Origin: Mytilus edulis
Lineage: Eukaryota
Direction of reading: 5' to 3'
Length of the DNA stretch: 64,000 nucleotides
Assembly: GCF_963676685.1 (NCBI RefSeq)
Contig: NC_092355.1
Coordinates: 72,850,001 to 72,914,000, forward strand
In this document: positions 22,386 through 63,646 of the stretch, one piece after another
How positions within the stretch are numbered: position 1 is the stretch's first letter
How the letters are laid out: each line of letters begins with the position of its first letter
Notes under the pieces: model-generated
The model's input: the letters and a program-made list of their open reading frames with translations, nothing else
Databases searched by the model: none
Told to the model about the DNA's origin: nothing
Translations under genes and position numbers: made by a program

Positions 22386-24178
22386 AAGTTACCTGATTTA
22401 AATCGACACGGGCCGCAAACAAGTAAGGACTGACAGACGGACAGACTTAAAATGTGATTCATATATTCTCTTTAACTTTACTTGTGGTTGTATTAAACAT
22501 CTTAGATAGTGATTTCCGATCTTGACACGGCTTGTAGGCTGTTTACAAACCGGAGACTATTGTCACTGTTGATGTGACAAAGACGTATATTTTTTACTCT
22601 TTTTATTGCGTTGTTTTCTCTCCCTTTTACTATTTTTTACTTTTTTTATTATTTTATTTTGCATGGCACACGATCAATTATAGTTAACACATTAAAGGTC
22701 AAATATTTGTTATTACACGTCATTTTTGTAGAAAGTATTGTTTTATCTATAGCAGATTGAAAACGTCAAAATGTCTTCAATTTTCGCCAAATCATGAAAG
22801 ATTCAGAGATACGATAGCATAGTATCGTGTGAAGTAAAATTTGAATTAACTATATTTCAAGCTGCTTTAATGAAGACAATGATACTACAAAAGTGTTATT
22901 CTTTCATTTTTTACGAATGGCCTTTGATCCCAATTTTTAAAAATGCATCATATTTCACCTTTACGACCGGGAAAAATGGAATCTATACATGTTTTCCTTT
23001 CAAATGATATATAATATAGCTGTGTGTTAGATAGGTGCATTACAATTATGTTTAAGGTCTGAATGTCACTAGCCTAATAACATTAATAAATATAGTGATT
23101 AATATGACTGTTTAGGGCAGAAGGTAATTCATTTACGCAAATTTGCAAACAAGCTTGTTTATTTAGTCAATTCAAATATGTAATAAAAAATGAAAATACA
23201 TGTGCTACTTTAAGAAATAAATTTTGTCGATTTTGAGACATTTATTCAAAATTTGTTTTATTTAAATTTTTTCCTTTTCTACCCTTTGGATGGATACACC
23301 TACATGTAATTATAAAAACAAGTCGTTTTTTTTTGTAAAAACATTTTGGAAATTTTTCAAATTTAAGTATGCTCTAAATATGTATAACAATTCTTTAAAA
23401 ATAGTTGTATTTCATAAAAGCTTCGTGATGTTAGAAAAATATTGTCATTTTCTGCTGTAATGTAATTTATCTAATTAAAAAAAAATGGTACAAATTATCT
23501 TCAAACGTTACCTGAGATCACCCCTAGTTTTTGATGGGTTCGTGTTGCTTATTCTTTAGTTTTCGATGATGTGTCTTGTGTACTATTGTTTGTCTGTTTG
23601 TCTTTAAATTTTTTAGCCATGATGTTGTCAGTTTATTTTCGATTTATGAGTTTGAATGTCTCTCTGGTATCTTTCGTCCCTCTTTTATCAAACCTAATGT
23701 CATTTAAAATGAGGGGTCCATTACATGAAATTAAATAGACTGTGTTATACAAATCAGTTGAAAAAATGCCCTTTTTACCAATACAGAAAATATTAGCAAA
23801 GGAAACGTATTAAAAACTTGGCTAGTATATTTTAAATATACAGTCAGAAAGCGACAAGGTATTGGGATAACTATCATAACAGTACCAAAAAATATGTTAA
23901 AAATCTTAAAATTAAACGGTAGCAAAACCTGTTGCACAGAACAGGTGGATTAAGCAAATCATATTTTTGTTAAAACAATATGTTATTTTATAAAAATCAT
24001 GAAGTTGGGTCAGTTTGAAAAACTTTTTGAAAGATATAAAACAATATGCGCTCAATGTGAAAACCCTCACAAAATCACTCAATTATTCATATGCACAATT
24101 TATAAAAGACTTCTTTTCATTTGAAACAGACATTGTCTTTGTGTGCACATTAAATATAACATTTCAAAATAAGAATAC

Positions 24179-25144
24179 CATGTAATGCTTTTTCAAAACA
24201 GCTTGTATGAAGTTCTCTCCCTTGTTTTGTTTCAGGAAGCCACATTGCGGGAACCAGCGAGCATGCTCAACTAATGGGTCATCACCTGCATCCCAGTTTC
24301 TGAGTCCTCCGCCACAGTGGAAGCATCTAGTGTAGTCATGGTACCCAGCAAACAGAAAACCAGCTAATGCCATCTCACGTGGTGTTTGGTTTAAATATCT
24401 CGGCCATCCTTCAAATGAACTTATTCGCACTTGAAGGGGAGCATAGCTTACGTATCTTGGAATTTGGTTTTGAATACCAATATCCCGCTGATTATTACTA
24501 GAACCTTTTTCATAATTGCACGCTGTAGAATTATTCGTTTTACCAATATTATGTGAATTGTTTTTACAGTTACTGGTGGGATTTTTATCACTATAAGCAT
24601 TACTAGTATTGCTTTGGGACCATTGAGGCGAAACGATAGTAGGTTGATCTTCCACAATATCATGATGGTGAAAATGTCTATCGGAGGACGTAATATCACC
24701 TATATCAGTATGTTTCTGTTCGCTGGTTAAAACGTTTGATAAACAATTATTTTCATTTGAGTGCAACGTATCATGGACTGATGATAGAACATTGAGATTA
24801 AATGGTTGTACTTCCAATCGCTCCCGTCTTCTTACATTTTGCAATTTCTCACCAATAGTGTCCTGCCTGTTACTATTCACAACGAGGTCACATGAAGGAG
24901 ATATTTGTCTATGAATATGCATAGGATCATCACCGGAAATCCAATCACGGTACATAACTTCACATACAAAACATTTAGTCTCAGTAGAATTCCCCGTAGA
25001 ATAAAATCCAGCTCCGGCAAGACGAACCATACTTATGTTTATATTTCGCGGAAAATTACGTAGTGAAAATAGTCGTAGCATTTCAGTTGACATCGAGTCA
25101 TTAGTTCTTCTACCGTTTGCAATGCAATCAAAGTACGTATCCAT
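24179..25144 (-). CDS. IAP coding exon 1, two BIR domains
   Basis: First ATG at 25144 (MDTYFDC), in-frame TGA upstream; BIR1 RLFSL..GFY..CFVC-x16-H-x6-C; BIR2 RISSFEGWP..AGF..CFHCGGGLRNW..DDPLVEHARWFPQC; phase-0 donor at 24178. Spliced CDS 966+370+135+197 = 1668 nt = 555 aa. Confidence 0.95.
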
Positions 25145-25548
25145 GTTATTAAGCCTTATCAATAGAGAGGTACAGAATCTCAAAAGATCACCAAACGCAT
25201 CAGTTTTCCCTGTAATGTTTTGTTTGTCCAAATGCTTTGATGTCTCTCTTCAGTTGATATGATAATAATTCTAACATAAAAACAGAAGTACAAGCATTGA
25301 TTACAAATCGTACAAGAGCTATCTTTTTTTTTTAAATTATCTGTTTAAAAACAGAAACTTCTGGCTATCTACTCGGTTCATGTTTGTAAATTTATATTTC
25401 TTTGTTTATAGCACAAAACTCAGTCAAAGTCCTGTGACGAGGTTTTTTATTGTGTGTATTTTAAGATAATTTACATGTCTACACTGTTAATCTCTTTGAT
25501 AAACACTGCGCAGAAGATTTACTATAACAATGTCTGTAAACGCTATAC

Positions 25549-30216: not shown

Positions 30217-31303
30217 GTAAGTTCGTCAAATAAATCTTAGATACGTTTATTGGTCACCGTTGGCTGAATATTTTTCATTCCCTAAAATGTGTATCATTTA
30301 CCAAAAGCTTACTAAAAAGAAAATCTAACATATACTTTATAATTGTATCTAAGAGTAAAAATCAATTGCATAAAGACAACTGTAATGGTTACCAAAACGT
30401 TGGACACTTTAAACCAGGTATTTGATATCTGAGAATCAGGAAATATATGCAATTGAGAATTCCTTGAAACATTTTTTTTTTCATATCATTCAAAATCATC
30501 AGCCAAACTGTGTACTACAAGAATCAACTGCCCTTCGTCTCCCATTTCATACCTAGATGTTATATATGTGGTGCTGTTGCTATACGTGTAGTTCTGATTT
30601 TAAATCATTTTTTCAGAGATAAGCCTTCAACGCTTAAATTCCTTAAATTGATGCAATTCAAATTACATTAGCTACAATTTGAAACAGCTACTACGAAATT
30701 CAAAAAGATAAAAATAAACGTGAACATGTGGTAATTTTAACAGATTTTTAGCATTCACTTTCTCAAATGTTAAAATTCTATACTGATATACTAGTATATG
30801 GAAGTACAATCAGCCCATACAACAGCACTATACGGTTATAAGTAAAGAGAAAGTAAATTAGTTTTTCCTAAATAAATAGAAAATTTGAAGTAAAGATTTT
30901 TTTACCAAAAAATAATTTGAAGGGCTTAAGTGATTTCTCGAAGATTCGAACATTTGCTGAAATGCATTATGAATCGAACACAAAATCACTTAAAAAATAC
31001 CGAAATCCGAGGAAACTTCAAAACGGAATCAAATGCCAAAATCAAAAGCTCAAACATATCAAACAAATGGATTAAAGCTGTCCTTCTCGTGACTAGGCAC
31101 AGACATTTTCTGATGTAGAAATGACAGTATATTCGATACAGTTACGAAATGATTTCTAATCCATAAACATGCATGGTCAAAAAATTAATGTTATGAGGCA
31201 CAATACTAACTGTAATAGATTTATATGTACAGGTTATATATCTTTATACTTGTATAGTATTCAAGCTATATGTTATCATTATCAATTGATGTTATTTTCA
31301 GAC

Positions 31304-32962
31304 ATGGCTACCGTAACAAGTACAAACTGTACTGTGTGTGAGTCACAGTCCATTATAAACACAGCTGTGAAGTGGTGTTTCGAATGTGATGAAGCATTTT
31401 GTCCCGACTGCCTTAAGTACCATAGCAACGTTAAGTTAACAAAAAGTCATGCTGTTGTTGATGTAAGTGATTTAAAAGAGTTGCCTGAATTCGTACTGAA
31501 AATAAAACAGCATTGCGAAGATCATGGAGCGCTTTTCCAGAACTATTGCTTAAGTCATGAACGACCATGTTGTCGGATATGCATTAACTCGACTCATAAA
31601 AACTGTACAGATTTGCCAACTCTAGAAGATGTAACCAAAAATGCTCGTAATTCAATAGCATTAGAAGACATTAAAGAGCGTCTGCTAAATCTGAAAAAGT
31701 ATTACGAGTGTCTTTGTCTGGAAAAACAGTCAAATGCCAAAGAAATACAGGCTCAGTCGATAACCATTATTGAGCATGTGAAGTCCACCCGACTTAAATT
31801 GAATCAGCATTTAGATCGTTTAGAAAGAGAAGTTCTTAAGAAGGTATCCGATCTGGAAACAAATGCACTACAAGATTTGGAGAGAATTTCTAGAGATTTA
31901 AAAGATAAGGAGGACATATTAGATGATTTAAACAAAAGCATCATAAAAATGCAAAATCATGCATCAGAACTACAGATTCTTCTCGGAACGAAGGCACTCG
32001 AATTTGAAATAAGTACACGGGAAAAAGAAATTGAAGGCTTGACAAAAGATAATTCGCTTAACGTGAGAAGCATTGATTTTAAAGAAAATATTAAACTTTC
32101 AGCTTTCACTACTGATGTTTTTTCATTCGGTGATACTGCAATGGAGATGAAACCATCAAAAAACAGTTACACGATGCCTAAAGAAAAACAGGCACAGATG
32201 TCAATCGAGGGAAGAAAGTTTGATGATATCAGACTCAAATTGATTAATGAATTTAACTTCAGGGTAGCTATGTATGGATGTGCAACTTTGAAAAATGATA
32301 TTGTATGTTATACTGCTTATAACACAAAAACCGTGTATGTGAAAAATACCAATGGAGTTTTGTTACACTCGATTGTTCTCCCTGAATACCCATACGACGT
32401 CGTGTTTGTAAACGACCAAGCATTAGCTGTAACAGCTGAAGGTAAAATCCTAATCGTCAGCCTAAAAACAAGATCAGTTGCGAAAACTATTGAGGCTTCG
32501 CTTGATTGTCATGGAATATCCATTTCCGATAAGAATTTGATTTGCAATTCAGCGAAAGAAGGACTGCTCTCAATTAATCTTGATAATGACATTTTAACTA
32601 AGCTTGATATTGGAAGTAAAACAACTGATTCATATGTTGCAATGCATGATGGAAAAGTTTACTGCACCAATACTGCACGTCCTTCCATTCAATGCTACAA
32701 TGTTGATAAAACACTTGCTTGGGAATTCATGGACAAATCGTTGATTCGACCACGCGGTATAGCTGTTGATAAAACTGGAGTCGTTTATGTCGGGAACGAG
32801 GGCGGTGGAAACATAATTGTGATCTCCCCTGATGGAGGAAATCACAAAGCAATAAAGATTGATAGCATTCCAAATCCGAGGACACTTAGTTTCAACAAAG
32901 CAAGGACACGTTTGCTTATTTGCAGTTTCAAAGGTGAAGCGGGTATTTTTGACTTTACGTGA
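31304..32962 (+). CDS. RING-less TRIM-like protein A: two B-boxes, coiled coil, NHL-like beta-propeller (552 aa)
   Basis: Acceptor ttattttcag/acATG; CTVC..WCFECDEAFCPDCLKYH..H; CEDH..YCLSHERPCCRIC..H; coiled-coil region; PYDVV, PRGIAVDKTGVVYVG, PRTLSF propeller blades. Confidence 0.92.
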   Translation: MATVTSTNCTVCESQSIINTAVKWCFECDEAFCPDCLKYHSNVKLTKSHAVVDVSDLKELPEFVLKIKQHCEDHGALFQNYCLSHERPCCRICINSTHKNCTDLPTLEDVTKNARNSIALEDIKERLLNLKKYYECLCLEKQSNAKEIQAQSITIIEHVKSTRLKLNQHLDRLEREVLKKVSDLETNALQDLERISRDLKDKEDILDDLNKSIIKMQNHASELQILLGTKALEFEISTREKEIEGLTKDNSLNVRSIDFKENIKLSAFTTDVFSFGDTAMEMKPSKNSYTMPKEKQAQMSIEGRKFDDIRLKLINEFNFRVAMYGCATLKNDIVCYTAYNTKTVYVKNTNGVLLHSIVLPEYPYDVVFVNDQALAVTAEGKILIVSLKTRSVAKTIEASLDCHGISISDKNLICNSAKEGLLSINLDNDILTKLDIGSKTTDSYVAMHDGKVYCTNTARPSIQCYNVDKTLAWEFMDKSLIRPRGIAVDKTGVVYVGNEGGGNIIVISPDGGNHKAIKIDSIPNPRTLSFNKARTRLLICSFKGEAGIFDFT

Positions 32963-36678: not shown

Positions 36679-38350
36679 ATGGCAGATGCAACAACTACAA
36701 ACTGTACTGTTTGTGAGGCACAGTCCGATATGAAAGCAGCTGTGAAGTGGTGTTCAGAATGTGAGGAAACCTTTTGTTTCGACTGCCTAAAGTACCATAG
36801 CAACGCCAAGTCAACAAAAAGTCATGCCGTCATTGATGTAAGTGATCAGAAAGAGCTCCCTGATTTCGTACTGAAAATAAAGCAGCATTGTGGTGAACAT
36901 GGAGCTCTATTCCAGAACTATTGTTTAAGTCATGCACGACCATGTTGTAGGAAATGTATCAACTCCACCCATAAGAACTGTATAGATATGCCACCTCTAG
37001 ATGAGGTCATCAAAGATGTTAGCAAGTCAGCAGCTGTAGAAGACATTCAAAAAACGTCTACAGAACCTTAAAGAGTACTATGAGCGTCTCTGTCAAGAAA
37101 AAGAGGAAAATGCAAAAGAAATAAAAACCCAGTCGAAAGCTATCATTGCTCATGTCATGTTCACCCGACTTAAGCTGAATCAGCATTTAGATTGTTTAGA
37201 GAGGGATGTTCTAAAGAAGGTATCTGAGCTAGAAAATAATGCACTACAAAAGATGGGAACAATTTCGAGGGACTTAAAAGGGAAGGAGGACAGAATAGAT
37301 GAGTTATACAAAGGCTTCATAAAAATGCAAAATCATGCGTCAGAACTTCAGATATTTCTCGGAACCAAGGAATTCGAATTAGAAGTAAGAAGGCGGGAGA
37401 ATGAAATTGACGAATTGGCAAAAGATGATTCGTTAGAAATAAAATGCATTGTGTTCCAAGAAAATATAGAACTTGCCTCTTTTACTTGTGACGTTAGTTC
37501 TTTCGGTGATATTGGAATACAGATTACTCCATCAACAACCATTTACACAAAGCCAAAAGAGCAACAAGCACAGACTACAGTTGAGAGAAAAAAGATTGAT
37601 GACATCAATCTGAATTTGTTGAAAGAAGTTAAATTTGCGGGAAGCTATGTATGTGGATGTGCAATTTTGGATGATGATGCTTTATGTATTGCTGGACCGA
37701 ATACAAAAACATTGCTTTTGAAAAATACAAATGAATCTTTGATGCACAAAATTACTCTACCTGATAAGCCGTATGACATTACCTATATAAACGAACAAAC
37801 ATTAGCAGTTACGACATCAAAATATAGCAGCACAATATTTATCGTCAACCTGAAGACAAAAAAGGTCGAGAAAACCATCAACACTGAATACAGATGCTAT
37901 GGAATATCTTTTTCGGACGGGAACTTGATAGTCCATTCGTCTGATGTAGGACTGATCTCACTAAATATAGAGAGTGGTATAGTAACTGTACTTGGTATTG
38001 GAAATAAGGTGTGTGATGCTTATGTCGCTGTGCATGATGGTAAAATATACTTTACTAATCCGGTATGTCATTCCATACAGTGCTACAATGTCGATAAATC
38101 ACTTTCCTGGGAATTCAAGGACACATCGTTGATCGCACCACGAGGTATAGCTGTTGACAAAAATGGAATGGTTTATGTGGGTGATCAGGGAGGCGGAAAT
38201 GTGCTTATCATCTCCCCTGATGGAAGTAAACACAGTGTTATAAAGATCGATATGATTCCTAGGCCAAGGACACTCAGCTTTGATAAGACAAGGACTCGTT
38301 TGCTTATATGCGGCGTAGACGGTCCAGTAGGCATATTTGTTATCACGTAA
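36679..38350 (+). pseudogene. TRIM-like paralog B with a single +1 frameshift (pseudogene, null allele or assembly error)
   Basis: ttctag/acATG at 36679; colinear with gene A; removing one A from the A6 run at 37049-37054 restores an open 556-aa ORF to TAA at 38350. Confidence 0.85.
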
Positions 38351-48340: not shown

Positions 48341-48718
48341 ATTATTGTTCAAAGTAACCACGCAATTATTCATACGCCCCTTTGAAATCAATGAGAAATA
48401 AAAGATCTATTATAAACGTTGTTGGATTACAATGTAAGAATTTCAATGTTGTAACACCTCATCCGACTGTGACTTGTAATGAGTTTGTGTGTTACATGTA
48501 TGTATCAGCTTGTGGCTAAATGTTAATTACATGCAATTCAATTCAATTCAATATTTTATTTAAGTCTCATCTCTCAATAATATATAATATAACATTACAT
48601 TAAATGTAAAAAATATATAAATATAAAAGGAGAGCCATTCTGTACAGAATTACAAGAGACTGTAACATTAAAAATTATATAAAGAATGCATCTATTATAA
48701 AACATATTGACATTAACA

Positions 48719-51700
48719 TTATTTACAGTATAAAACATTTCTACGTCTATTTAAAATAAGATTACAGGCTTTGGCACAGCTACGAATCATATTATTATCT
48801 GTAAATAAAAACACTAATTTCTGTTTATCATCATAAGACATAAAATCACTATTAAAATGTGTTGCTTCATCAAATAATTTTTTTCTAAAATCATCATACA
48901 AAGGACACGATAAAATAACATGGGCTTCATCTTCTAAAATATTCATACAATTATCACAGACTCGATCTTTTAAAATTAATTTTTCAAATCTCCCCGTTTC
49001 TATTCTTAGTGGTGCTACACCACATCGAAATTTGGCAAAAGAACTCCTTTGCGAAAATGGCATTGGAATTTTACAATAAGTTTCCGTTTCAAAACTGTTC
49101 TTAAATAAATTATATGTACGAAGTTTGTTACCACCTTTACCAGATAAAGCTTTCTCTGATTGTAAATTGCCTTGCCACTGTTCGACATATTTACTAAACA
49201 TTTTAGACATAACAGTATTGACAACTGAGGTACTATCAACATAATCTGTAATGATACACAAATGTTCTGCATTATACTCAGAAAACGTTTTCCTTACATA
49301 AAAATTCCAATTTTTTATACACTTATGTTTTTTACTCATAATGTCTGCCCATATGAAAATTTTTCTGTTTAAACGATCAGAACTCATATTGTTCAAACGG
49401 CACCATAGTCGAATTAAGCATTGCCATTGTTTTTGAAAGATAGGTATCCACCCCATATCCCCTGCAACTGCAGCATTTGGAGTATATTTACCCACTCCAA
49501 GAAAAAATCTGCAAGCTCTATTATGGATGGCATTTATAAAAGAAAAATTTTTGCAACCCCAAATACCAGCACCATATTCAACAATTGGAAGCACCAAACT
49601 CTCATATAATTTTGAAAAGACATTATGAGTAACACCACCTAAGATTTTGCACTTGGCTATAACAAGGCCAAGTGCTCTATTTGCAGAAGCTGCAACAGCT
49701 TTAGCAGTTACATTATAATCTAAAAATTCACTTAAAACTAAACCTAAATATGTATAAGTAGTAGAATATTCAATGATATCATTCCCACATTTAAATTCAA
49801 CATGTGACTTATCAACAGAAGGTGTTCTAAAATGCACAATATTACACTTTTTGGAATTAATGGTCATACAATTATCTCCACACCATATATCTAATGCATT
49901 TAACAGAATTTGTAATTCTTTTTCATCGTTTGCAAGTAAAACCACATCATCAGCATAAAGCAAAATACAAACTTTTTCATCATCAATATCAATACCACAC
50001 TCATATGATTTCAAGAATGAAACTAGGTCATTAATATATAAATTAAATAACAAGGGAGATAATGGGCACCCTTGTTTAAGACCACTGTTAACATTAAACC
50101 ATTCTGATAAATGGCCGTTTAATCGTACTGAACATAATATATTTGAATAAATAGACTGTATAGCAGCACAAAAATTTTCAGCCACCCCCAATACATTTAA
50201 CTTGGACCATAGTATATTTCTATTGATGGTATCATATGCCTTTTTAAAATCAATAAACGCACAAAAAGTAGATTTACGAAGCTTCTTTCTGACTTCAATT
50301 ATGTTTGTAAGAGAAGACAATTGGTCTATAGTGCTTCGATTTTGACGGAAACCATTTTGTTCGTCGACTAATATGTTATTGTCATCTATCCATTGCACAA
50401 GCCTTTCGTTTAAAATATTACAATAAAGCTTATAGGAAACACAAGCTAATGCAATTCCTCTGTAAGACAAAGGGTCGCGCGGATCTGTCATGTTTGCTTT
50501 AGGTATAGGATTGATAATAATTTTGTTCCATAATTCTGGCGTTTTTTGGAACCTAAAGCAAAAATCAAATAAATGGTACAAAAACAAAGTTGAGCAATTA
50601 TTTTGCAAAACTTCAACTGGTAAATTATCAAAACCAGCAGATTTGCCTTTCTTTGCTTTGTCAATGACACTAGCTGTTTCAGCAAACGAAATGGGTTCCG
50701 TCAATAAAAAGTCATTAAAAGTATTTTTCGTATATGCATGATTTTGCGTTTCAGAAACCTTGGTTGAAATCTTTTGATTCAACAAATTACTATATTCCGA
50801 CTTCCATTTATCTAAAACAGCTGTCAGATTTGAATTAACATTCCCATCTTGATCTATGACCTCCATGGGAATTACTGACTTCCGGGTTTCCGCTACCCCA
50901 ATTTTACCAATTTTTTTCCAGAACTGCTGTTGGTTTCTTTTTGATTCCAACAACAAGTCCTGCTGCATACTAAACCAATACTTTCGCTTACATTTTTGAA
51001 CCTCCCTGTCAAAATATTTTCTCTTCTGTACATAAACCGACTTCAATTCAGAAGCACGTGAACTATTATTAAATTTATTCCACGTTTTTTCGGCCTTGCA
51101 CATATCAACCCATAACTTGTTTAAATCATCATTCCACCAAGGTTTCTTGATTCTATGTTTCTTGTTTGTAAGACTACTACCACCTATACATACAGTTTTA
51201 CATGTTAGTTTGTCATTCATTTCACCTTCTACAGTTTTACAAAACGATGAAAATATATCATTTACACAACTTTGTTCTTGTTTAATCATATCAAACTTTT
51301 CTATAAAAGAATTAATTTCTAAATATATATAATCAGTATTCATAAAATCTGTTGGTATGTTCTTACAATCATATTTATTAAAACTAGACAGTTCTAATTC
51401 TTCTTTTTTTAGCAATTCTACTGAAATAAATGAGCTCAGATCAAAATTCCATTTAATCAATGAATGATCAGAAATCAACTTTAAATCCACCCCTGATAAA
51501 TCATAGCCCGCCAAGGTCACCAGGTCATTGGCTCTTATCACTGCAAAATTGCTAAATAAATGTAAATAATCATATGGTACAATACAATAGTCTACCACTG
51601 AACAGCCTTTTGTTGATACACATGTATAATCATTGTTAACAAAGTTTCTACCGTTAAGTATACAACAGTTCACGCTAATTAAAAAATCAATAAATGTGTT

Positions 51701-52261
51701 ACTATAAGAATTACATTTAAAATCAACTACATCTCTTGGACATAGATCATCGACACCAACAATATAATCGTTTTCATCTCCACATCTACTATTAAAATCT
51801 CCACAAATCAAAAATGGACCAGAATTTTGATGCTCATACACCTGTGTAATTAGTGTGTCAAAAAATACATCTTTATCAACCTGCCTGGTTGAGTTTTCCG
51901 GGGGCAAATATGCTACACATATATTAAATCTAAAGTCTGAATTTTTATGTTTGAAAGAGACCCACAAAATACCCTCAAATGATGTGTCTAACACTCCAAT
52001 ATCAAACATTTCGTAATAAGATTTTTTAATAAACAGTCCTACCCCACCAGAACCAGTCTTGGCTTTTTTATGTAGATGTTTTCTATTTTGACCAATCCAG
52101 TTATAACTATTTACATGTAAAACGTCATCATACTTTAAATGTGTTTCACATACACCTACAATATCTAAATTCAACATGTTTATACAATCAGTTCTAAGTT
52201 TATTATTTTCAGAAAAAGTGTTTTTATTCCAATTATTCACATTCCAAAACCCGGCTGCAAT
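48719..52261 (-). CDS. LINE ORF2: AP endonuclease, reverse transcriptase, C-terminal CCHC zinc knuckle (1180 sense codons after the ORF1 stop)
   Basis: APE motifs GFWNV, GVCETH, GGVG, YLPP, GDFNSR, VDY, SDH; RT motifs YRGI, QNGFR, FIDFKKAYD, GLKQGCPLSPLLFNLYI, YADD, YLG; CDNC..EDEAHVILSC. No AUG before the first motif. Confidence 0.95.
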   Translation of the reverse strand: MAAGFWNVNNWNKNTFSENNKLRTDCINMLNLDIVGVCETHLKYDDVLHVNSYNWIGQNRKHLHKKAKTGSGGVGLFIKKSYYEMFDIGVLDTSFEGILWVSFKHKNSDFRFNICVAYLPPENSTRQVDKDVFFDTLITQVYEHQNSGPFLICGDFNSRCGDENDYIVGVDDLCPRDVVDFKCNSYSNTFIDFLISVNCCILNGRNFVNNDYTCVSTKGCSVVDYCIVPYDYLHLFSNFAVIRANDLVTLAGYDLSGVDLKLISDHSLIKWNFDLSSFISVELLKKEELELSSFNKYDCKNIPTDFMNTDYIYLEINSFIEKFDMIKQEQSCVNDIFSSFCKTVEGEMNDKLTCKTVCIGGSSLTNKKHRIKKPWWNDDLNKLWVDMCKAEKTWNKFNNSSRASELKSVYVQKRKYFDREVQKCKRKYWFSMQQDLLLESKRNQQQFWKKIGKIGVAETRKSVIPMEVIDQDGNVNSNLTAVLDKWKSEYSNLLNQKISTKVSETQNHAYTKNTFNDFLLTEPISFAETASVIDKAKKGKSAGFDNLPVEVLQNNCSTLFLYHLFDFCFRFQKTPELWNKIIINPIPKANMTDPRDPLSYRGIALACVSYKLYCNILNERLVQWIDDNNILVDEQNGFRQNRSTIDQLSSLTNIIEVRKKLRKSTFCAFIDFKKAYDTINRNILWSKLNVLGVAENFCAAIQSIYSNILCSVRLNGHLSEWFNVNSGLKQGCPLSPLLFNLYINDLVSFLKSYECGIDIDDEKVCILLYADDVVLLANDEKELQILLNALDIWCGDNCMTINSKKCNIVHFRTPSVDKSHVEFKCGNDIIEYSTTYTYLGLVLSEFLDYNVTAKAVAASANRALGLVIAKCKILGGVTHNVFSKLYESLVLPIVEYGAGIWGCKNFSFINAIHNRACRFFLGVGKYTPNAAVAGDMGWIPIFQKQWQCLIRLWCRLNNMSSDRLNRKIFIWADIMSKKHKCIKNWNFYVRKTFSEYNAEHLCIITDYVDSTSVVNTVMSKMFSKYVEQWQGNLQSEKALSGKGGNKLRTYNLFKNSFETETYCKIPMPFSQRSSFAKFRCGVAPLRIETGRFEKLILKDRVCDNCMNILEDEAHVILSCPLYDDFRKKLFDEATHFNSDFMSYDDKQKLVFLFTDNNMIRSCAKACNLILNRRRNVLYCK

Positions 52262-53575
52262 CTACCATCTACCCTGTGTCGTGTGCCTTTGTTGTTCACC
52301 ATTTCTGTCTCTTTGTTCTCGTCTGGAGTCGCTGTTGTAGTCGTTACGTCTTCCAGTATGAGTGTTATTGTGCATGTCACGCTGACTCCTATTTCCAGCG
52401 CGATGATGGCGGCTGTTACTTTGTTCATTACGTGAACTTTGCATGTCTCTATTAAAATGACCTTCTCGTCTTGACTGTTGGTGGTTAACATAACGCTTCG
52501 CTATAATTTCAGCTCCTCTCATGTCAATTTCGGAATCAAATGATTTTAAAACGTCAACAATCGTTTGAAAGTTTTTTCGCTCAATACGCTGTTGAACGCT
52601 TTGATCTTTGTGGATGTAAACATCGCTATATTGTCGACTGAACTTTAAATTACATTTTGAAGACATGATTTGGTTGAGATCATCTTTTGACTTACATGTA
52701 ATAATCACTACTCCACTTTTGTGTTCATTTCGGCTACGTTTACGCTCGACATTGGAAAACGAAATTGTTTGTATTTTTAGACCTTCCCTCATCAAAGCTG
52801 AAATTTTTGAATTCAGATTTTCATTCGCACTTTCGGGTAAATTTCTGATAACTAAATTATAGGATATGTCTCTTTCTCCTGTGTGCTTTACAGATTTAGA
52901 TATCTCATTCAATTTGTCCTCTACACTTTTCAAGTCTTGGTCAAAATCCTGACGCAAAGTATCGACAGCCAAATTTACATCTTTTTTCACTTTGGATACT
53001 TCCGTTGAAATTCGTTTATCAATAATTTGGTTAATTTTTTGTGTAATTTTACGTTCAAGGTTAGCCTCAAGATCGTTTATACGATTATTCATCTCACCAA
53101 ACATACTCCGCATATCAACTGACAAATTACTGATCATTTTGGTGACCATAAGCATCTCTGGAGATACGGTTGAATCCACGTGGATCTCAGCTTCTGTCGT
53201 TTTATTTAAGATTTGTTCAGTATTAGTTTCGATAGTTTGCATTCCACTATTGGGACTTTTCGGTACATGTTTTGGACGTTTTTGTTTATTTTCGGTGTTT
53301 TTTGTACAAATCGTCTCGCTGTCACTATCTTCCGTATTAAGCTTTCTTTTTAAGTTATTCTGTTGTGAACTACTATTGGAAAATAGGTTCCCAAATAAAG
53401 AGTCATCTGTTTGGTATATAATATTATGAGCTTCGGATATAACATCACTAACACTAATACATGTATCATTAGGTTGTTGTGTACTGTTACTTTTATTTGT
53501 TTCTAACTCTTTCGTTTGTTGTTTTTCCTGAGTTGTTTTATTACTCCGACCGTTACCGTTATTTTTCTTCCCCAT
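52262..53575 (-). CDS. LINE ORF1 (coiled coil, RRM-like domain, basic tail; 437 aa)
   Basis: ATG at 53575; heptad-rich segment, NLVIRNLPE..VYIHKDQS RRM/CTD-like region, R/H/N/Q-rich tail; directly upstream of ORF2. Confidence 0.9.
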   Translation of the reverse strand: MGKKNNGNGRSNKTTQEKQQTKELETNKSNSTQQPNDTCISVSDVISEAHNIIYQTDDSLFGNLFSNSSSQQNNLKRKLNTEDSDSETICTKNTENKQKRPKHVPKSPNSGMQTIETNTEQILNKTTEAEIHVDSTVSPEMLMVTKMISNLSVDMRSMFGEMNNRINDLEANLERKITQKINQIIDKRISTEVSKVKKDVNLAVDTLRQDFDQDLKSVEDKLNEISKSVKHTGERDISYNLVIRNLPESANENLNSKISALMREGLKIQTISFSNVERKRSRNEHKSGVVIITCKSKDDLNQIMSSKCNLKFSRQYSDVYIHKDQSVQQRIERKNFQTIVDVLKSFDSEIDMRGAEIIAKRYVNHQQSRREGHFNRDMQSSRNEQSNSRHHRAGNRSQRDMHNNTHTGRRNDYNSDSRREQRDRNGEQQRHTTQGRW

Positions 53576-55444
53576 AATTAAATCTATGGTCCAAAGTCCA
53601 AATCAGTGACCTCAAGCCCTAGAGCGGTATGTCTCTGGCTATTAAACACGGTATTGTGATGAGTAGTTTTCTGTTGTGTCAATGAAAGTTCTATTTTTAG
53701 TTTTGTTCAATAAAAGCTATGAAAACACTTTTTAAAACAGAGCTTAAGACATATAAAAGTTACACTCACTGCAAAGAATACTCCAAAAGTAATCCTGCTA
53801 GTCCAAGATATATGAACACTTTATAAATCGCAGATAAAAGTCGAAATTCTTCGGAGACATATAAACATCGACTAATCACAAAGATGGCGTCTCTCTTATC
53901 ATCTTATGCATCGGATGGCATATTGATATGTGTAAAATGTATATATGTTTTAGTCTAGAATCGATTCGACGATGACAAGAATTACAAAAACTTAATGATG
54001 AATATCATCCTAGTCCCCCCCCCCCCCCCTGAGAAAAAATGCAAATAAGTAAAATTATTACTATTCCTTTGGATAATACAATATTACCAAGTTGTTAATT
54101 GTTCAAGTTTGACATATTGAACCATAATTCTAATAATACAGTTGTTTTAGAAGTATTAAAAAATTATTGGTTTATTTGTTGTCTATAAATGTCAGACTTT
54201 ATTAACAAAATAAAGCTCATTCTGAATATGAATGAACTATTTGCCACTGGACTTAAAGCAAACTAGATAAATCAAGCACCGAATGCTAAAATCTATATAT
54301 CTGAAATTTGTCTTCGCTTCGATCAACCCTGGACTCGGACGACTTCTTTTAAACTGAGTTTCACTATGCGTATTTCTGTGTGTTTCTTTTTTCAACATTG
54401 GCTAGAGATATAGGAGTCGGGTTGAGATCTTACAAAAGATGTTTAGTCCAGTTCATTTTTGCGCCTGTCCAATGTCAGGAGTCTCTAACCTTTGATAGTC
54501 CTGTATGCTTTATATTTTAGTTCATTTATTCATTTTGGAGTTTAGTATGAAGTTCATTTTCATTGAACTAGTACACATGTTTATGAAAGGGCCAGGTGAG
54601 GCCTACCTTCGGGTGCGGGATTTTCTCTCTGTGTTGAAGCCCATTGGTGGCATTCGGCTGTTGTCTGGTCTTTGGTCGGGTTATTGTCTATTTGACATAT
54701 TTCCCATTTTCATTCTTAATTTTTATAATTAAAGCTCGTCCTGAATATGAATGAACTATTTGCCACTAGATATAAAACAAAGTAGATAAATTAATTATTT
54801 AATACGTTAGTTAAAGGAGTGATTACCACATTAATGAACACATATTTGAAACTTGTCTTCGATCAACCAATCGAAACAAAGTTAGTCTTTAAATCCCAAA
54901 ATGTCATTACTTGAGACAGTCACAAAAGGAAAAAATAAATTTCATGAAACTTGACGTTCGTGCCTTAAAATCATACAAATAGATCTTTTTATAAACTTAA
55001 TTAATTCAATTTAAATATGGAGAGCATCGCCAAAATCATATGATTTCTAAAAACGACATTTCGACACAAGTCCCTTCTTAAACAGTGCTTATTATCGATG
55101 CTCAGAATGTATCGTAAAATTTCGTATATAATTATATGACATTGTGTGTTGCTTTAATATCAAACTATTGTTGTAAGGTATTGTTTTATTACATAACTTG
55201 AATTCAATAAAACTCATTAACATAAAATTGAGAAAGGAAATGGTGAATATGTCAAAGCGACAACCACCCGACCATAGAGCAAACAACAGCCGAAGGCAAC
55301 CAATGGGTCTACACACATTTATTATGAAGGTAGCTGGCAAGTTAGTCGGACTCATAAAGGGTAAGATAGAAAAGAAGAGAAAGAAATGAGAAAGGTATAC
55401 TTCTTGTCTTATCCCTCTTTATAATCTAGTTTAAACTCTGAATT

Positions 55445-55712: not shown

Positions 55713-55784
55713 ATGACGTTAGAAGAAGGTGGTCGGAGAACATGCATCAAAGTTACAATTATATTGGTCAACATACCAGTAGCG
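55713..55784 (+). CDS. Tetraspanin coding exon 1
   Basis: MTLEEGGRRTCIKVTIILVNIPVA (C.K......N TM1 pattern), donor gtgagt, phase 0; an acceptor ttttgtag at 55677 implies an upstream UTR exon. Confidence 0.85.
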
Positions 55785-56233
55785 GTGAGTGAATAATTAT
55801 CATATCATCCTGGTCAACATACCAGTATGTTAAGTAAACATTTATCATAGCATGCAGGTCAATATATCAGTAGTAATAAATGAATAGTTTTCATATCATC
55901 CCGGTCAACGTACCAGTAACGGTAATTGTTATTATCATATCATCCCGGTCAACGTACCATTATGTTAAGTGAACAATTATAATATCATCCCGGTCAACAT
56001 ACCAGTAGTGGTGTGTGAACAATTGTTATATCATCCCGTTCTACATACCAGTAGCGGTAAGTGAATGATTATCATATATCACCCTGGTCAACATTACCAG
56101 TTGGGTTGAGTGAACTATAGCTATTATAATACAATCCCGGTTAACATACCAGTAGCAATAATCAACTATCAAATCATAAGGGTCAACATATAAGTAGCGG
56201 TAAGTGAATAATTATCATATCGCACTGGTCAAT
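55766..56233 (+). repeat. About 46-bp minisatellite (about 11 units) derived from the exon 1 / intron junction
   Basis: Unit ggtcaacataccagtagcggt(g/a)agtgaataattatcatatcatcc; the first unit is the coding exon end. Confidence 0.9.
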
Positions 56234-58982: not shown

Positions 58983-59093
58983 GTGGAAAATACTATGGAG
59001 AAGGCAATAGGAAGAAGTATAAAAGAAGAATTTGAAGGAGTAGCAGATAGCGATAATGCATTTACCATACATTTTAATGCAGTACAACAAAAA
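58983..59093 (+). CDS. Tetraspanin coding exon 4 (EC2 helices)
   Basis: ttttag / gtgagt, 111 nt; VENTMEKAIGRSIKEEF..FNAVQQK leading into LECCG. Confidence 0.88.
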
Positions 59094-59310
59094 GTGAGTA
59101 ATATATAAGACAAACGTGAAAATACATTTACCATACAATTTAATGAAGTACAGCAAAAAGTTAGTAATATAAGACAAATGTGAAAATACATTTACCATAC
59201 ATTTTAATGCAATACAGTAAAACGTTAGTAATATAAGACAAATGGGAAAAATACATTTAATGCAGTACAGCAAAACGTCAGTGATATAAGACAATTGGGT
59301 AAAAACATTT
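59056..59310 (+). repeat. About 64-bp minisatellite derived from the exon 4 / intron junction
   Basis: Unit aat(g/a)catttaccatacattttaatgcagtacaacaaaaagt(g/t)agtaatataagacaaa; resumes at about 60037-60065 after the MITE insertion. Confidence 0.88.
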
Positions 59311-59311
59311 A

Positions 59312-60034
59312 CAGCCGATTGCATTGAGTGTGTAGGCAATGGTAATATCTTTGGTCAGCTTGCTTGCTAGCTGAACCGTGAAGTCATTAATAGGTAAGGT
59401 ATACTACCCTCTTTTCGAAGTAGCCTAGTCCTCCACACACAAAAAGATCAGTTATCTGTCGGACTACACAGGCAAAATTTGCTCACATGAATTTCACATG
59501 AATCTCACATGAAATTCACATGAAAAATTTCACGTGAGATTCACCGCAATCGAGCTTATACATAAAACTCACGTGAAAATTTTCATGTGAATTTCACGTG
59601 AATTGAGATTCACATGAATCTGATGTGAAATTTCTCACATGAATTTCAGGTGAAATTTACACAAAAAAATGATATTTTTCATGATTTTAATTAAATTTGA
59701 AAATTAAGATATTATTTGAAATACTCTATTTTAAAAATTCATATGATTTTTCACATGAATAAAAAATACGTGATTTTCATGTGAAATTCACATGAAACTC
59801 ACAAAAACTGATTTCACGTGAGTATAAGCTCGTTTGAGGTGAAATTCATGTGAATTTCACATGAGATTCACATTACTTTAAATTCACATGAAATTCATGT
59901 AAGTGAAATTTGCCTGTGTAGTCTATTCTTATAGGAGGATAGTTCACATAACCTAATGATGTTTTCACGGTCCAGCTAGCAATCAGGCTTACCAAATATA
60001 TAACCTTTACCTACACACTCAATGCAATCGGCTG
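59312..60034. mobile_element. Tc1/mariner-type MITE
   Basis: ta/CAGCCGATTGCATTGAGTGTGTAGG ... CCTACACACTCAATGCAATCGGCTG/ta, imperfect TIR extending to about 70 bp, TA duplication. Confidence 0.85.
59467..59918. mobile_element. CACTA/EnSpm-like MITE nested in the previous MITE, with TCAC(A/G)TGA arrays
   Basis: ta/CACAGGCAAA ... TTTGCCTGTG/ta; about 17 copies of TCACATGA, TCACGTGA or TCATGTGA. Confidence 0.75.
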
Positions 60035-63378: not shown

Positions 63379-63646
63379 GTAATGAATTACTAATGAACTA
63401 CCAATGAACTACTAAGAAACTAATAAGAAACTACTAATGAACTACTAAGAAACTAATAACAAACTACTAATGAACTACTAATGAACTCTTAAGAAACTAC
63501 TAATGAACTCTTAAGAAACTACTAATGAATTACTAATGAACTACCAATGAACTACTAAGAAACTAATAAGAAAATACTAAGGAACTTCAAATGAACTACT
63601 TATGAACTACTAATGAGCTACTAATGAACTACTGATGAACTACTAA
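63379..63646 (+). repeat. 11-bp tandem repeat (CTAATGAACTA)n starting at the exon 6 donor
   Basis: gtaatgaatta ctaatgaacta ccaatgaacta ctaagaaac...; over 20 degenerate units. Confidence 0.9.

Follow-up and report, generated by a model that had tools for sequence, protein, structure and literature searches.

Introduction

How can a retrotransposon make its polymerase when the reading frame that encodes it offers no start codon? This question is raised by a long interspersed nuclear element (LINE) on the minus strand of a 64,000-nucleotide (nt) stretch of the Mytilus edulis genome (assembly GCF_963676685.1, contig NC_092355.1, positions 72,850,001 to 72,914,000), called the window here, with positions counted from its first letter. 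In this element, the open reading frames ORF1 and ORF2 share one frame, and a single TAG (52264-52262) divides them. The mode of translation of LINE ORF2 has long been an open question (PMC3894237; this and the other papers cited are used within the extracts of them that were available). The original prediction, made from the letters of the window, held that ORF2 needs a non-canonical route and offered two of them, readthrough of the UAG or a restart at the AUU that follows it.

We consider it probable that this element, an RTE-X LINE, makes its endonuclease-reverse transcriptase by programmed UAG readthrough, stimulated by a predicted helix that would join the bases following the stop to a site close to the RNA's 3' end. 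This reading builds on an in-frame stop, the lack of AUG, the favored UAG-G, a motif whose distance to the stop is fixed, and a lineage-specific complementarity of that motif to the 3' end.

One Frame, a Conserved Stop, and No AUG

The minus-strand letters of the junction were re-read and are those quoted in the original prediction. The stop-to-stop frame of ORF1 covers 53602-52262 (446 codons, or 437 aa from the ATG at 53575), and that of ORF2 has 1180 codons, so that a fusion would have the 1618 aa already calculated (437 + 1 + 1180). The first in-frame ATG of ORF2 is indeed at 52177, codon 29, downstream of the W-N motif. Residues directly after the TAG align with the first strand of the L1 endonuclease and ExoIII structures, the L1 endonuclease alignment begins at profile position 2, and the Pfam endonuclease match opens at ORF2 residue 6; a start at 52177 would thus truncate the enzyme, as had been expected.

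A genome search gave seven matches, namely four full copies, two copies of a sister family, and one match on the ORF1 side only. All four full copies (99-100%) read TAG-ATT, both copies of the sister family, at 75% identity, read TAG-TTA, and a published consensus holds the same junction, TAG included (supplement of PMC10294476). Since the TAG is kept in all of these, it is neither a copy defect nor a chance event.

The clade was then covered by a protein search of the genome, in which 149 of 1466 candidates were scored and 150 matches were listed. Ninety-nine loci, selected for an intact endonuclease start and biased toward long frames, were inspected; 96 could be anchored, and they form 49 families at 85% identity. 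In 48 of the 49 families, the W motif is preceded, at a distance of 5, 6, 7, 13, 14, 15 or 16 codons, by a stop (TAG in 42, TAA in 6), and no AUG occurs between the stop and W in any of the 48. At least 250 open ORF1 codons stand immediately upstream of the stop in 34 of them, with homologous ORF1s ending at the stop; most of the remaining 14, judged by eye, hold the ORF1 tail in frame and are disrupted further upstream. The choice of stop is constrained at the junction: the same 28 families with intact ORF2 have 24 TAG and 4 TAA there, vs. 5 TAG, 19 TAA and 4 TGA at the end of ORF2 (p = 5.6e-7, a nominal value, as are all p-values here, because the families are related and not independent). 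The original prediction had allowed for a mutation peculiar to this copy, which a sense codon or an ATG in the consensus would reveal. A nonsense mutation of this kind in a single-ORF element has practically no probability left, being refuted by the stop in 4/4 full copies, in the published consensus, and in 48/49 families.

The 49th family consists of one copy, L078 (G000 C9:56478484), with a 33-nt in-frame deletion and a fused frame of 1469 codons. It was considered as a natural fusion lineage and rejected, as four relatives hold 33 more bases at this place, with TGA in three of the four. The family of L125-L128 and L078 uses UGA, followed by CUA in one copy and by UUA in two.

The arrangement is also found in other hosts. 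Eighty loci were taken from LINE contigs inside bacterial metagenome-assembled genomes (MAGs), which are most likely contamination with host DNA, and 39 of them were anchored and scorable. An in-frame TAG after at least 180 open upstream codons was present in 27/39, with spacers of 5-102 codons; of the other 12, two are open to the contig end, five have a separate AUG-started ORF2, and five are ambiguous or distant. Several RTE-X consensus starts from Solen and Sinonovacula, read by eye, also have an in-frame TAG upstream of the W-N motif, within published records in which only junctions near record starts are visible (supplement of PMC10294476). As a control, LINEs of other clades in the same genome were used, 52 of 60 loci being anchored (a redundant set of fewer than 10 families by eye, six loci probably mis-anchored); at least 180 open upstream codons were seen in 0/52, and an ATG in 42/52. 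A protein-based metagenome scan for such junctions confirmed 0 of 34 stretches, and two hits of a DNA pattern scan are left uncounted because the pattern presupposed the stop.

Dozens of intact eukaryotic LINEs (L195-L274) lie in bacterial GTDB MAGs, many of them in Sedimenticola, Thiodiazotropha, and unnamed Gammaproteobacteria bins, and at least two of the MAG LINEs (P0012, P0064) are annotated as bacterial reverse transcriptases. Within the mussel genome, three near-identical intact copies of one RTE-X family (L028-L030; G000 C11:38785291, 38794639, 38805432) lie about 10 kb apart, either through tandem duplication or as a repeat of the assembly.

Transcripts Across the Junction

RNA data bear on another explanation, in which the TAG would act as a 3' splice acceptor (YAG) that connects an upstream AUG exon to ORF2. 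A TAG suits this role and is the triplet most often seen at the junction; however, six families have TAA and one has TGA, and the bases upstream are purine-rich and lack a pyrimidine tract. In a stranded run, reads were present in 29/30 bins, with about 2.5-fold depth at the junction and an almost wholly sense orientation, assuming the usual library type. A contig from a second run spans 51620-52482 ungapped and unspliced, with six differences that leave the stop unaffected. Sense-strand reads and this contig thus traverse the junction unspliced, TAG present, and no splice joints are listed in the four runs, two of which have zero junction coverage. Splicing, which had been named in advance as something that could overturn the original prediction, is very improbable, although at this depth a rare spliced form could have gone unseen. 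With the stop conserved across the family and the clade and no splice joint seen, the claim that ORF2 needs a non-canonical route is supported.

A Putative Signal Beside the Stop

The base after the stop (+1) is G in 31/48 families and in 22/27 of the other-host loci; in the window element it is A. Positions +1 to +6 are weakly conserved save for G1, A2 and A6, and the CARYYA motif of type I readthrough does not follow the stop. Further downstream lies a GC-rich motif at +8 to +12 that tracks the stop rather than the protein, its codon phase differing between elements. The GC content of +9 to +12 is 79-87%, vs. a background of about 35%, and the motif is written in rare codons (CGG for 9/11 Arg codons vs. 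5% background; TGC in 11/16 vs. 20%). Its position at +7 to +12 stays constant across spacers of 5-102 codons.

No local structure was recognized that could serve as the signal. A shared helix was not found within 400 nt of the junctions, folds of 31 other-host junctions had no common structure, Rfam gave no match at the junction, and neither a pseudoknot nor a stem of the gammaretroviral type was found within about 60 nt. The local fold of the window junction is weaker than 199 of 200 shuffles (z = +2.4, with a folder that does not model pseudoknots), and a synonymous-codon scan along ORF2 gave weak peaks. The original prediction had noted the lack of CARYYA and of a local pseudoknot and expected a signal of another type; a helix formed over a long range with the 3' end, as predicted from the pairing described below, is the likely candidate.

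Predicted Pairing with the 3' End

A segment at about +7 to +20 is complementary to a site 3.2-3.9 kb downstream, at the end of ORF2 or in the 3' untranslated region (UTR). In the window element, 52253-52244 would pair with 48774-48765, giving ten predicted pairs (8 Watson-Crick, 2 G-U) about 3.48 kb apart, and the distal arm is retained in the other three full copies. Motif and matching partner differ from one subclade to the next, with rare codons and compensatory changes. When the motif of each of 47 intact elements was scanned along its own ORF2 and compared with the motifs of other families, this unbiased scan of 47 ORF2s placed the strongest cognate-over-non-cognate peak at codons 1162-1165 (-1.8 kcal/mol, sd 0.33). 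A tail window, made up of the final 300 nt of ORF2 and 200 nt of UTR, outscores all interior windows in 33/44 elements (about 6 expected), with mean pairing of -16.7 for the tail, -11.6 for the interior and -11.4 for shuffled motifs. Among 32 15-mer offsets, the excess is confined to starts +4, +6 and +10 (-4.3, -5.3 and -2.0), the remaining 29 lying between -1.1 and +0.8.

In the subclade of the window element, with a spacer of 5 codons, the G-F-W codons pair with A-K-[T/I/A]-[C/L], about 18 codons before the ORF2 stop. The test covered 22 of 27 families or loci, those whose distal site was available, and 235/264 cells pair. The distal-site Ala is GCC in 20/22 (background 17%), compared with 2/23 in other groups, and the Thr/Ile/Ala codon has C in third position in 21/22 vs. 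a background of 11-17%. Watson-Crick cells number 203, vs. 190±3 in shuffled sets, a value reached by 2 of 10000 shuffles. At +12, a matched change from G-C to A-U is accompanied by Thr to Ile, and a matched block change in L198 leads to 12 perfect pairs; three loci of this subclade require a one-base bulge.

Other subclades use other sites. For spacers of 6 or 7 codons, the partner is formed by the codons that follow G-R-Y, some 270 nt upstream of the ORF2 stop. Among 14 anchored elements, 13 pair there, with up to -30 kcal/mol, and four further elements lack the anchor. In the groups with 13-16 codons and in more distant ones, the partner lies in the 3' UTR. L078 retains the motif and the 3' UTR partner despite the loss of its stop (-23.9 kcal/mol, +140 nt). 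L251, a distant LINE from a cyanobacterial MAG contig (CADCWO010000055.1), has an in-frame TAG with 298 open codons upstream and a predicted helix of 15+ bp (-32.5 kcal/mol) with the bases immediately past the ORF2 stop; on a long branch, it clusters with L253, and its host is probably a non-mollusc eukaryote. Judged computationally, pairing of a stop-proximal element with the 3' end, as in tombusviruses, is likely.

Readthrough Weighed Against Other Mechanisms

According to the proposed mechanism, the majority of ribosomes would terminate at the UAG and release ORF1p. Where the tail of the RNA is paired to +7 to +20, the helix would stand at the mRNA entry channel and slow termination, so that a near-cognate tRNA could decode the stop and a minority product, the ORF1-ORF2 fusion, would be made, with the flexible ORF1 tail as its joint. 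By analogy with tombusviruses, polymerase would arise only from RNAs with an intact 3' end. A ribosome reading through would also unwind the helix and make the 3' end accessible to target-primed reverse transcription, which would favor cis action and a high ratio of ORF1p to ORF2p.

Readthrough fits better than its rivals since the frame is conserved with variable spacers, UAG-G is constrained, a start codon is missing, and the helix begins 6-9 nt after the stop. A UAG-G context, called type III, requires a downstream structure, and readthrough stimulators have spacers of about 8 nt (PMC13517186). With moderate confidence we extend this to a broader view, in which much of RTE-X would make its polymerase solely as a readthrough fusion through a stop/3'-end helix acting as a full-length check and cis-preference device, with arms and partner sites re-invented in each subclade, a reach beyond molluscs (L251), and convergence with plant tombusviruses.

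The same observations may be read as termination at the UAG, after which the small subunit, held by the long-range helix, would reinitiate without an AUG, at the stop or directly past it, with a free ORF2p as the product. Such a route has been proposed for mammalian L1, where initiation is described as AUG-independent, and reinitiation in SART1 requires a downstream structure (PMC5972666, PMC10275272). In the window subclade, the stop falls precisely where the first endonuclease strand begins, which would suit a restart, as would the failure to find a fused lineage. Against this, the families share no start codon. The first codon after the stop is of 17 kinds among 48 families and ATT in only one of them, and 22/48 lack both AUG and a common near-cognate start before the W motif. 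Of the two routes offered originally, a restart at AUU is therefore unsupported as a general rule, and readthrough is favored. Reinitiation also leaves unexplained why UAG-G is kept while the stop of ORF2 itself is mostly UAA; ORFs translated by reinitiation are usually out of frame (PMC10275272), and the onset of the helix 6-9 nt past the stop is the spacing of readthrough stimulators. On balance, we judge reinitiation, the main rival of readthrough, unlikely.

Alternatively, the stop could be leaky by itself or through another cue, and the helix could serve another role, e.g., RNA looping for packaging or reverse transcription. In the established model of target-primed reverse transcription, ORF2p engages its template near the 3' end of the RNA, and the distal arm sits where this would take place. 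For Carnation Italian ringspot virus (CIRV), the same pairing influences replication as well (PMC3234231). However, the proximal arm is fixed to the stop, at +7 to +12 over spacers of 5-102 codons, and not to the protein or the RNA end, and UAG-G alone is a weak context (PMC13517186), which makes this explanation quite improbable.

Several points weigh against programmed readthrough by a long-range helix. LINEs are not known to encode a protease, so the fusion would stay uncut. The sole copy without a stop, L078, owes this to its own deletion and does not represent a fused lineage. Among the other-host loci, 3/27 have an ATG within the spacer, and five relatives (L234, L237, L239, L241, L250) have a conventional ORF1 and a separate AUG-started ORF2; as these nest among readthrough-type elements, with weak deep support, more than one loss or gain of the arrangement has taken place. 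Downstream structure is also used for reinitiation, as in SART1 (PMC5972666, PMC10275272). Regarding the helix, the value observed in the window subclade is reached by 181 of 10000 shuffles once G-U pairs are counted, most pairs are invariant within that subclade, and the +12 change from G-C to A-U is largely confined to one clade. The choice of the tail window was made with the first scans already seen, and a convincing partner was not found for L213, L214, L222 and L229. For the motif of the window element, two interior sites score -17.5 and -16.4 vs. -15.3 at the distal site, which places it outside the 33/44, so that the argument for its helix is that 22 relatives conserve the site.

Relation to Known Systems

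A close parallel was found in the tombusvirus CIRV (Cimino et al. 2011, PMC3234231), in which a UAG-G upstream of the polymerase is combined with a pairing of proximal and distal readthrough elements (PRTE-DRTE) over about 3.5 kb to the 3' end. That pairing was proposed to cull truncated RNAs and favor cis action. In CIRV, 6 nt pair through the bulge of a large local stem-loop, whereas 9-17 pairs are predicted for RTE-X, directly with bases 6-9 nt past the stop, in an animal retrotransposon and from sequence only. A large local stem-loop around the proximal element is not predicted in RTE-X.

The gag-pol of Moloney murine leukemia virus, a gammaretrovirus, also has an in-frame UAG, a spacer starting with G, and a stem about 8 nt downstream; it differs in its local H-type pseudoknot and protease-cut fusion, while the RTE-X partner lies kilobases away and no protease is encoded. 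In Paramecium, Group 3 non-LTR (long terminal repeat) retrotransposons have ORF1 and ORF2 in one frame, and readthrough was suggested (Guerin et al. 2017, PMC5405496). These belong to a separate ciliate clade, and the suggestion, one sentence based on consensus sequences, does not describe a signal. SART1, with its UAAUG, and mammalian L1 resemble RTE-X in coupling ORF2 translation to the ORF1 stop, with downstream RNA structure in SART1, but they have an AUG and an overlap or a spacer, unlike the AUG-free, continuous frame of RTE-X. An AUG overlapping or adjoining the stop, as in SART1, does not occur here, the count of in-frame spacer AUGs being 0/48 families.

In the literature searched, Repbase entries excluded, neither RTE-X readthrough nor a long-range helix in a LINE was found. 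The available extracts of PMC10294476, PMC5972666, PMC5009743, PMC10275272, PMC3894237, PMC11203168 and PMC7846101 contain no report of RTE-X readthrough or of a long-range readthrough helix in LINEs, and the available main-text passages of PMC10294476 on stop codons do not address the junction. The in-frame stop of RTE-X is real and clade-wide, and it would represent recoding of a known kind with an unexpected, predicted long-range signal.

Few LINE cases have been worked out, and this one would provide a mechanism that spans the clade and, with its predictions for individual bases, is open to direct testing. If true, readthrough dependent on a distant 3' end would extend from plant RNA viruses to animal retrotransposons, and cis preference and the disregard of 3'-truncated transcripts would have a simple explanation. 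With a likely signal that involves the distant 3' end, a short dual-luciferase reporter holding only the junction would likely yield a false negative; for CIRV, a dual-luciferase construct failed to show the long-range effect in vivo (PMC3234231). Gene callers place the start of these ORF2s at a downstream Met and lose the first strand of the endonuclease, and among the matches listed (120 proteins), many database relatives begin in this way.

The Element and Its Surroundings

The features of the element are collected in Table 1. It is, by its sequence, an intact RTE-X LINE, a class taken from M.edulis_90_LINE, to which its reverse transcriptase is near-identical and which a published tree-based table assigns to RTE-X (Martelossi et al. 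2023, PMC10294476). Features of RTE-X present in it are the apurinic/apyrimidinic (AP) endonuclease and reverse transcriptase in ORF2, the ORF1 upstream, and a short-repeat 3' tail. RTE-X LINEs are a large group, abundant in mussels and clams. Proto2 was considered as the clade of the element and ruled out by the near-identity to the RTE-X entry. In ORF1, a Pfam search gave no family above cut-off, and a profile built from 33 ORF1s matched the RNA recognition motif (RRM) of L1 ORF1p weakly (E 0.008). The 5' end was placed where RNA reads of a single run diverge (53892, n = 4), and the match of copy L008 extends to 53794. This end is approximate, and a target-site duplication was not recognized by eye.

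Table 1. Features of the RTE-X element in the window.
Feature	Positions	Strand	Remarks
5' UTR	53576..53892	minus	5' end approximate
ORF1, 437 aa	52265..53575	minus	coiled coil, then RRM-like region, then R/N/Q-rich low-complexity tail
In-frame TAG between ORF1 and ORF2, predicted readthrough codon	52262..52264	minus	
Proximal arm of predicted long-range helix, CGGGUUUUGG	52244..52253	minus	+9 to +18 after stop; A-G-F-W codons
ORF2 frame, 1180 codons, terminal TAA	48719..52261	minus	stop-to-stop; AUG-free before codon 29
AP endonuclease domain, ORF2 residues 6-266	51464..52246	minus	PF03372, E 2.7e-8; L1 endonuclease and ExoIII structures
Reverse transcriptase domain, ORF2 residues 586-842	49736..50506	minus	PF00078, E 3.5e-40
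Distal arm of predicted helix, CCAAAGCCUG	48765..48774	minus	A-K-A-C codons, 18 codons before ORF2 stop
3' UTR	48534..48718	minus	terminal (ATTGA)n repeats 48552-48534; same end in three other copies

A LINE family from a different clade (L138-L164), very young and present in many copies, is concentrated on contigs C11 and C8 of the same genome; its ORF2 AUG lies in TAA ATA ATG, possibly a stop-start of the UAAUG type. Elsewhere in the window, a 361-codon frame (24164-25249, minus strand) encodes two BIR (inhibitor of apoptosis) domains, and long plus-strand frames at 31160-32962 and 37040-38350, with B-box and NHL/SGL-like propeller matches, represent TRIM-like host genes. Minisatellite arrays occupy 55766-56232, 59055-59658 and 63380-63646, with units of 46, 64 and 11 bases, respectively.

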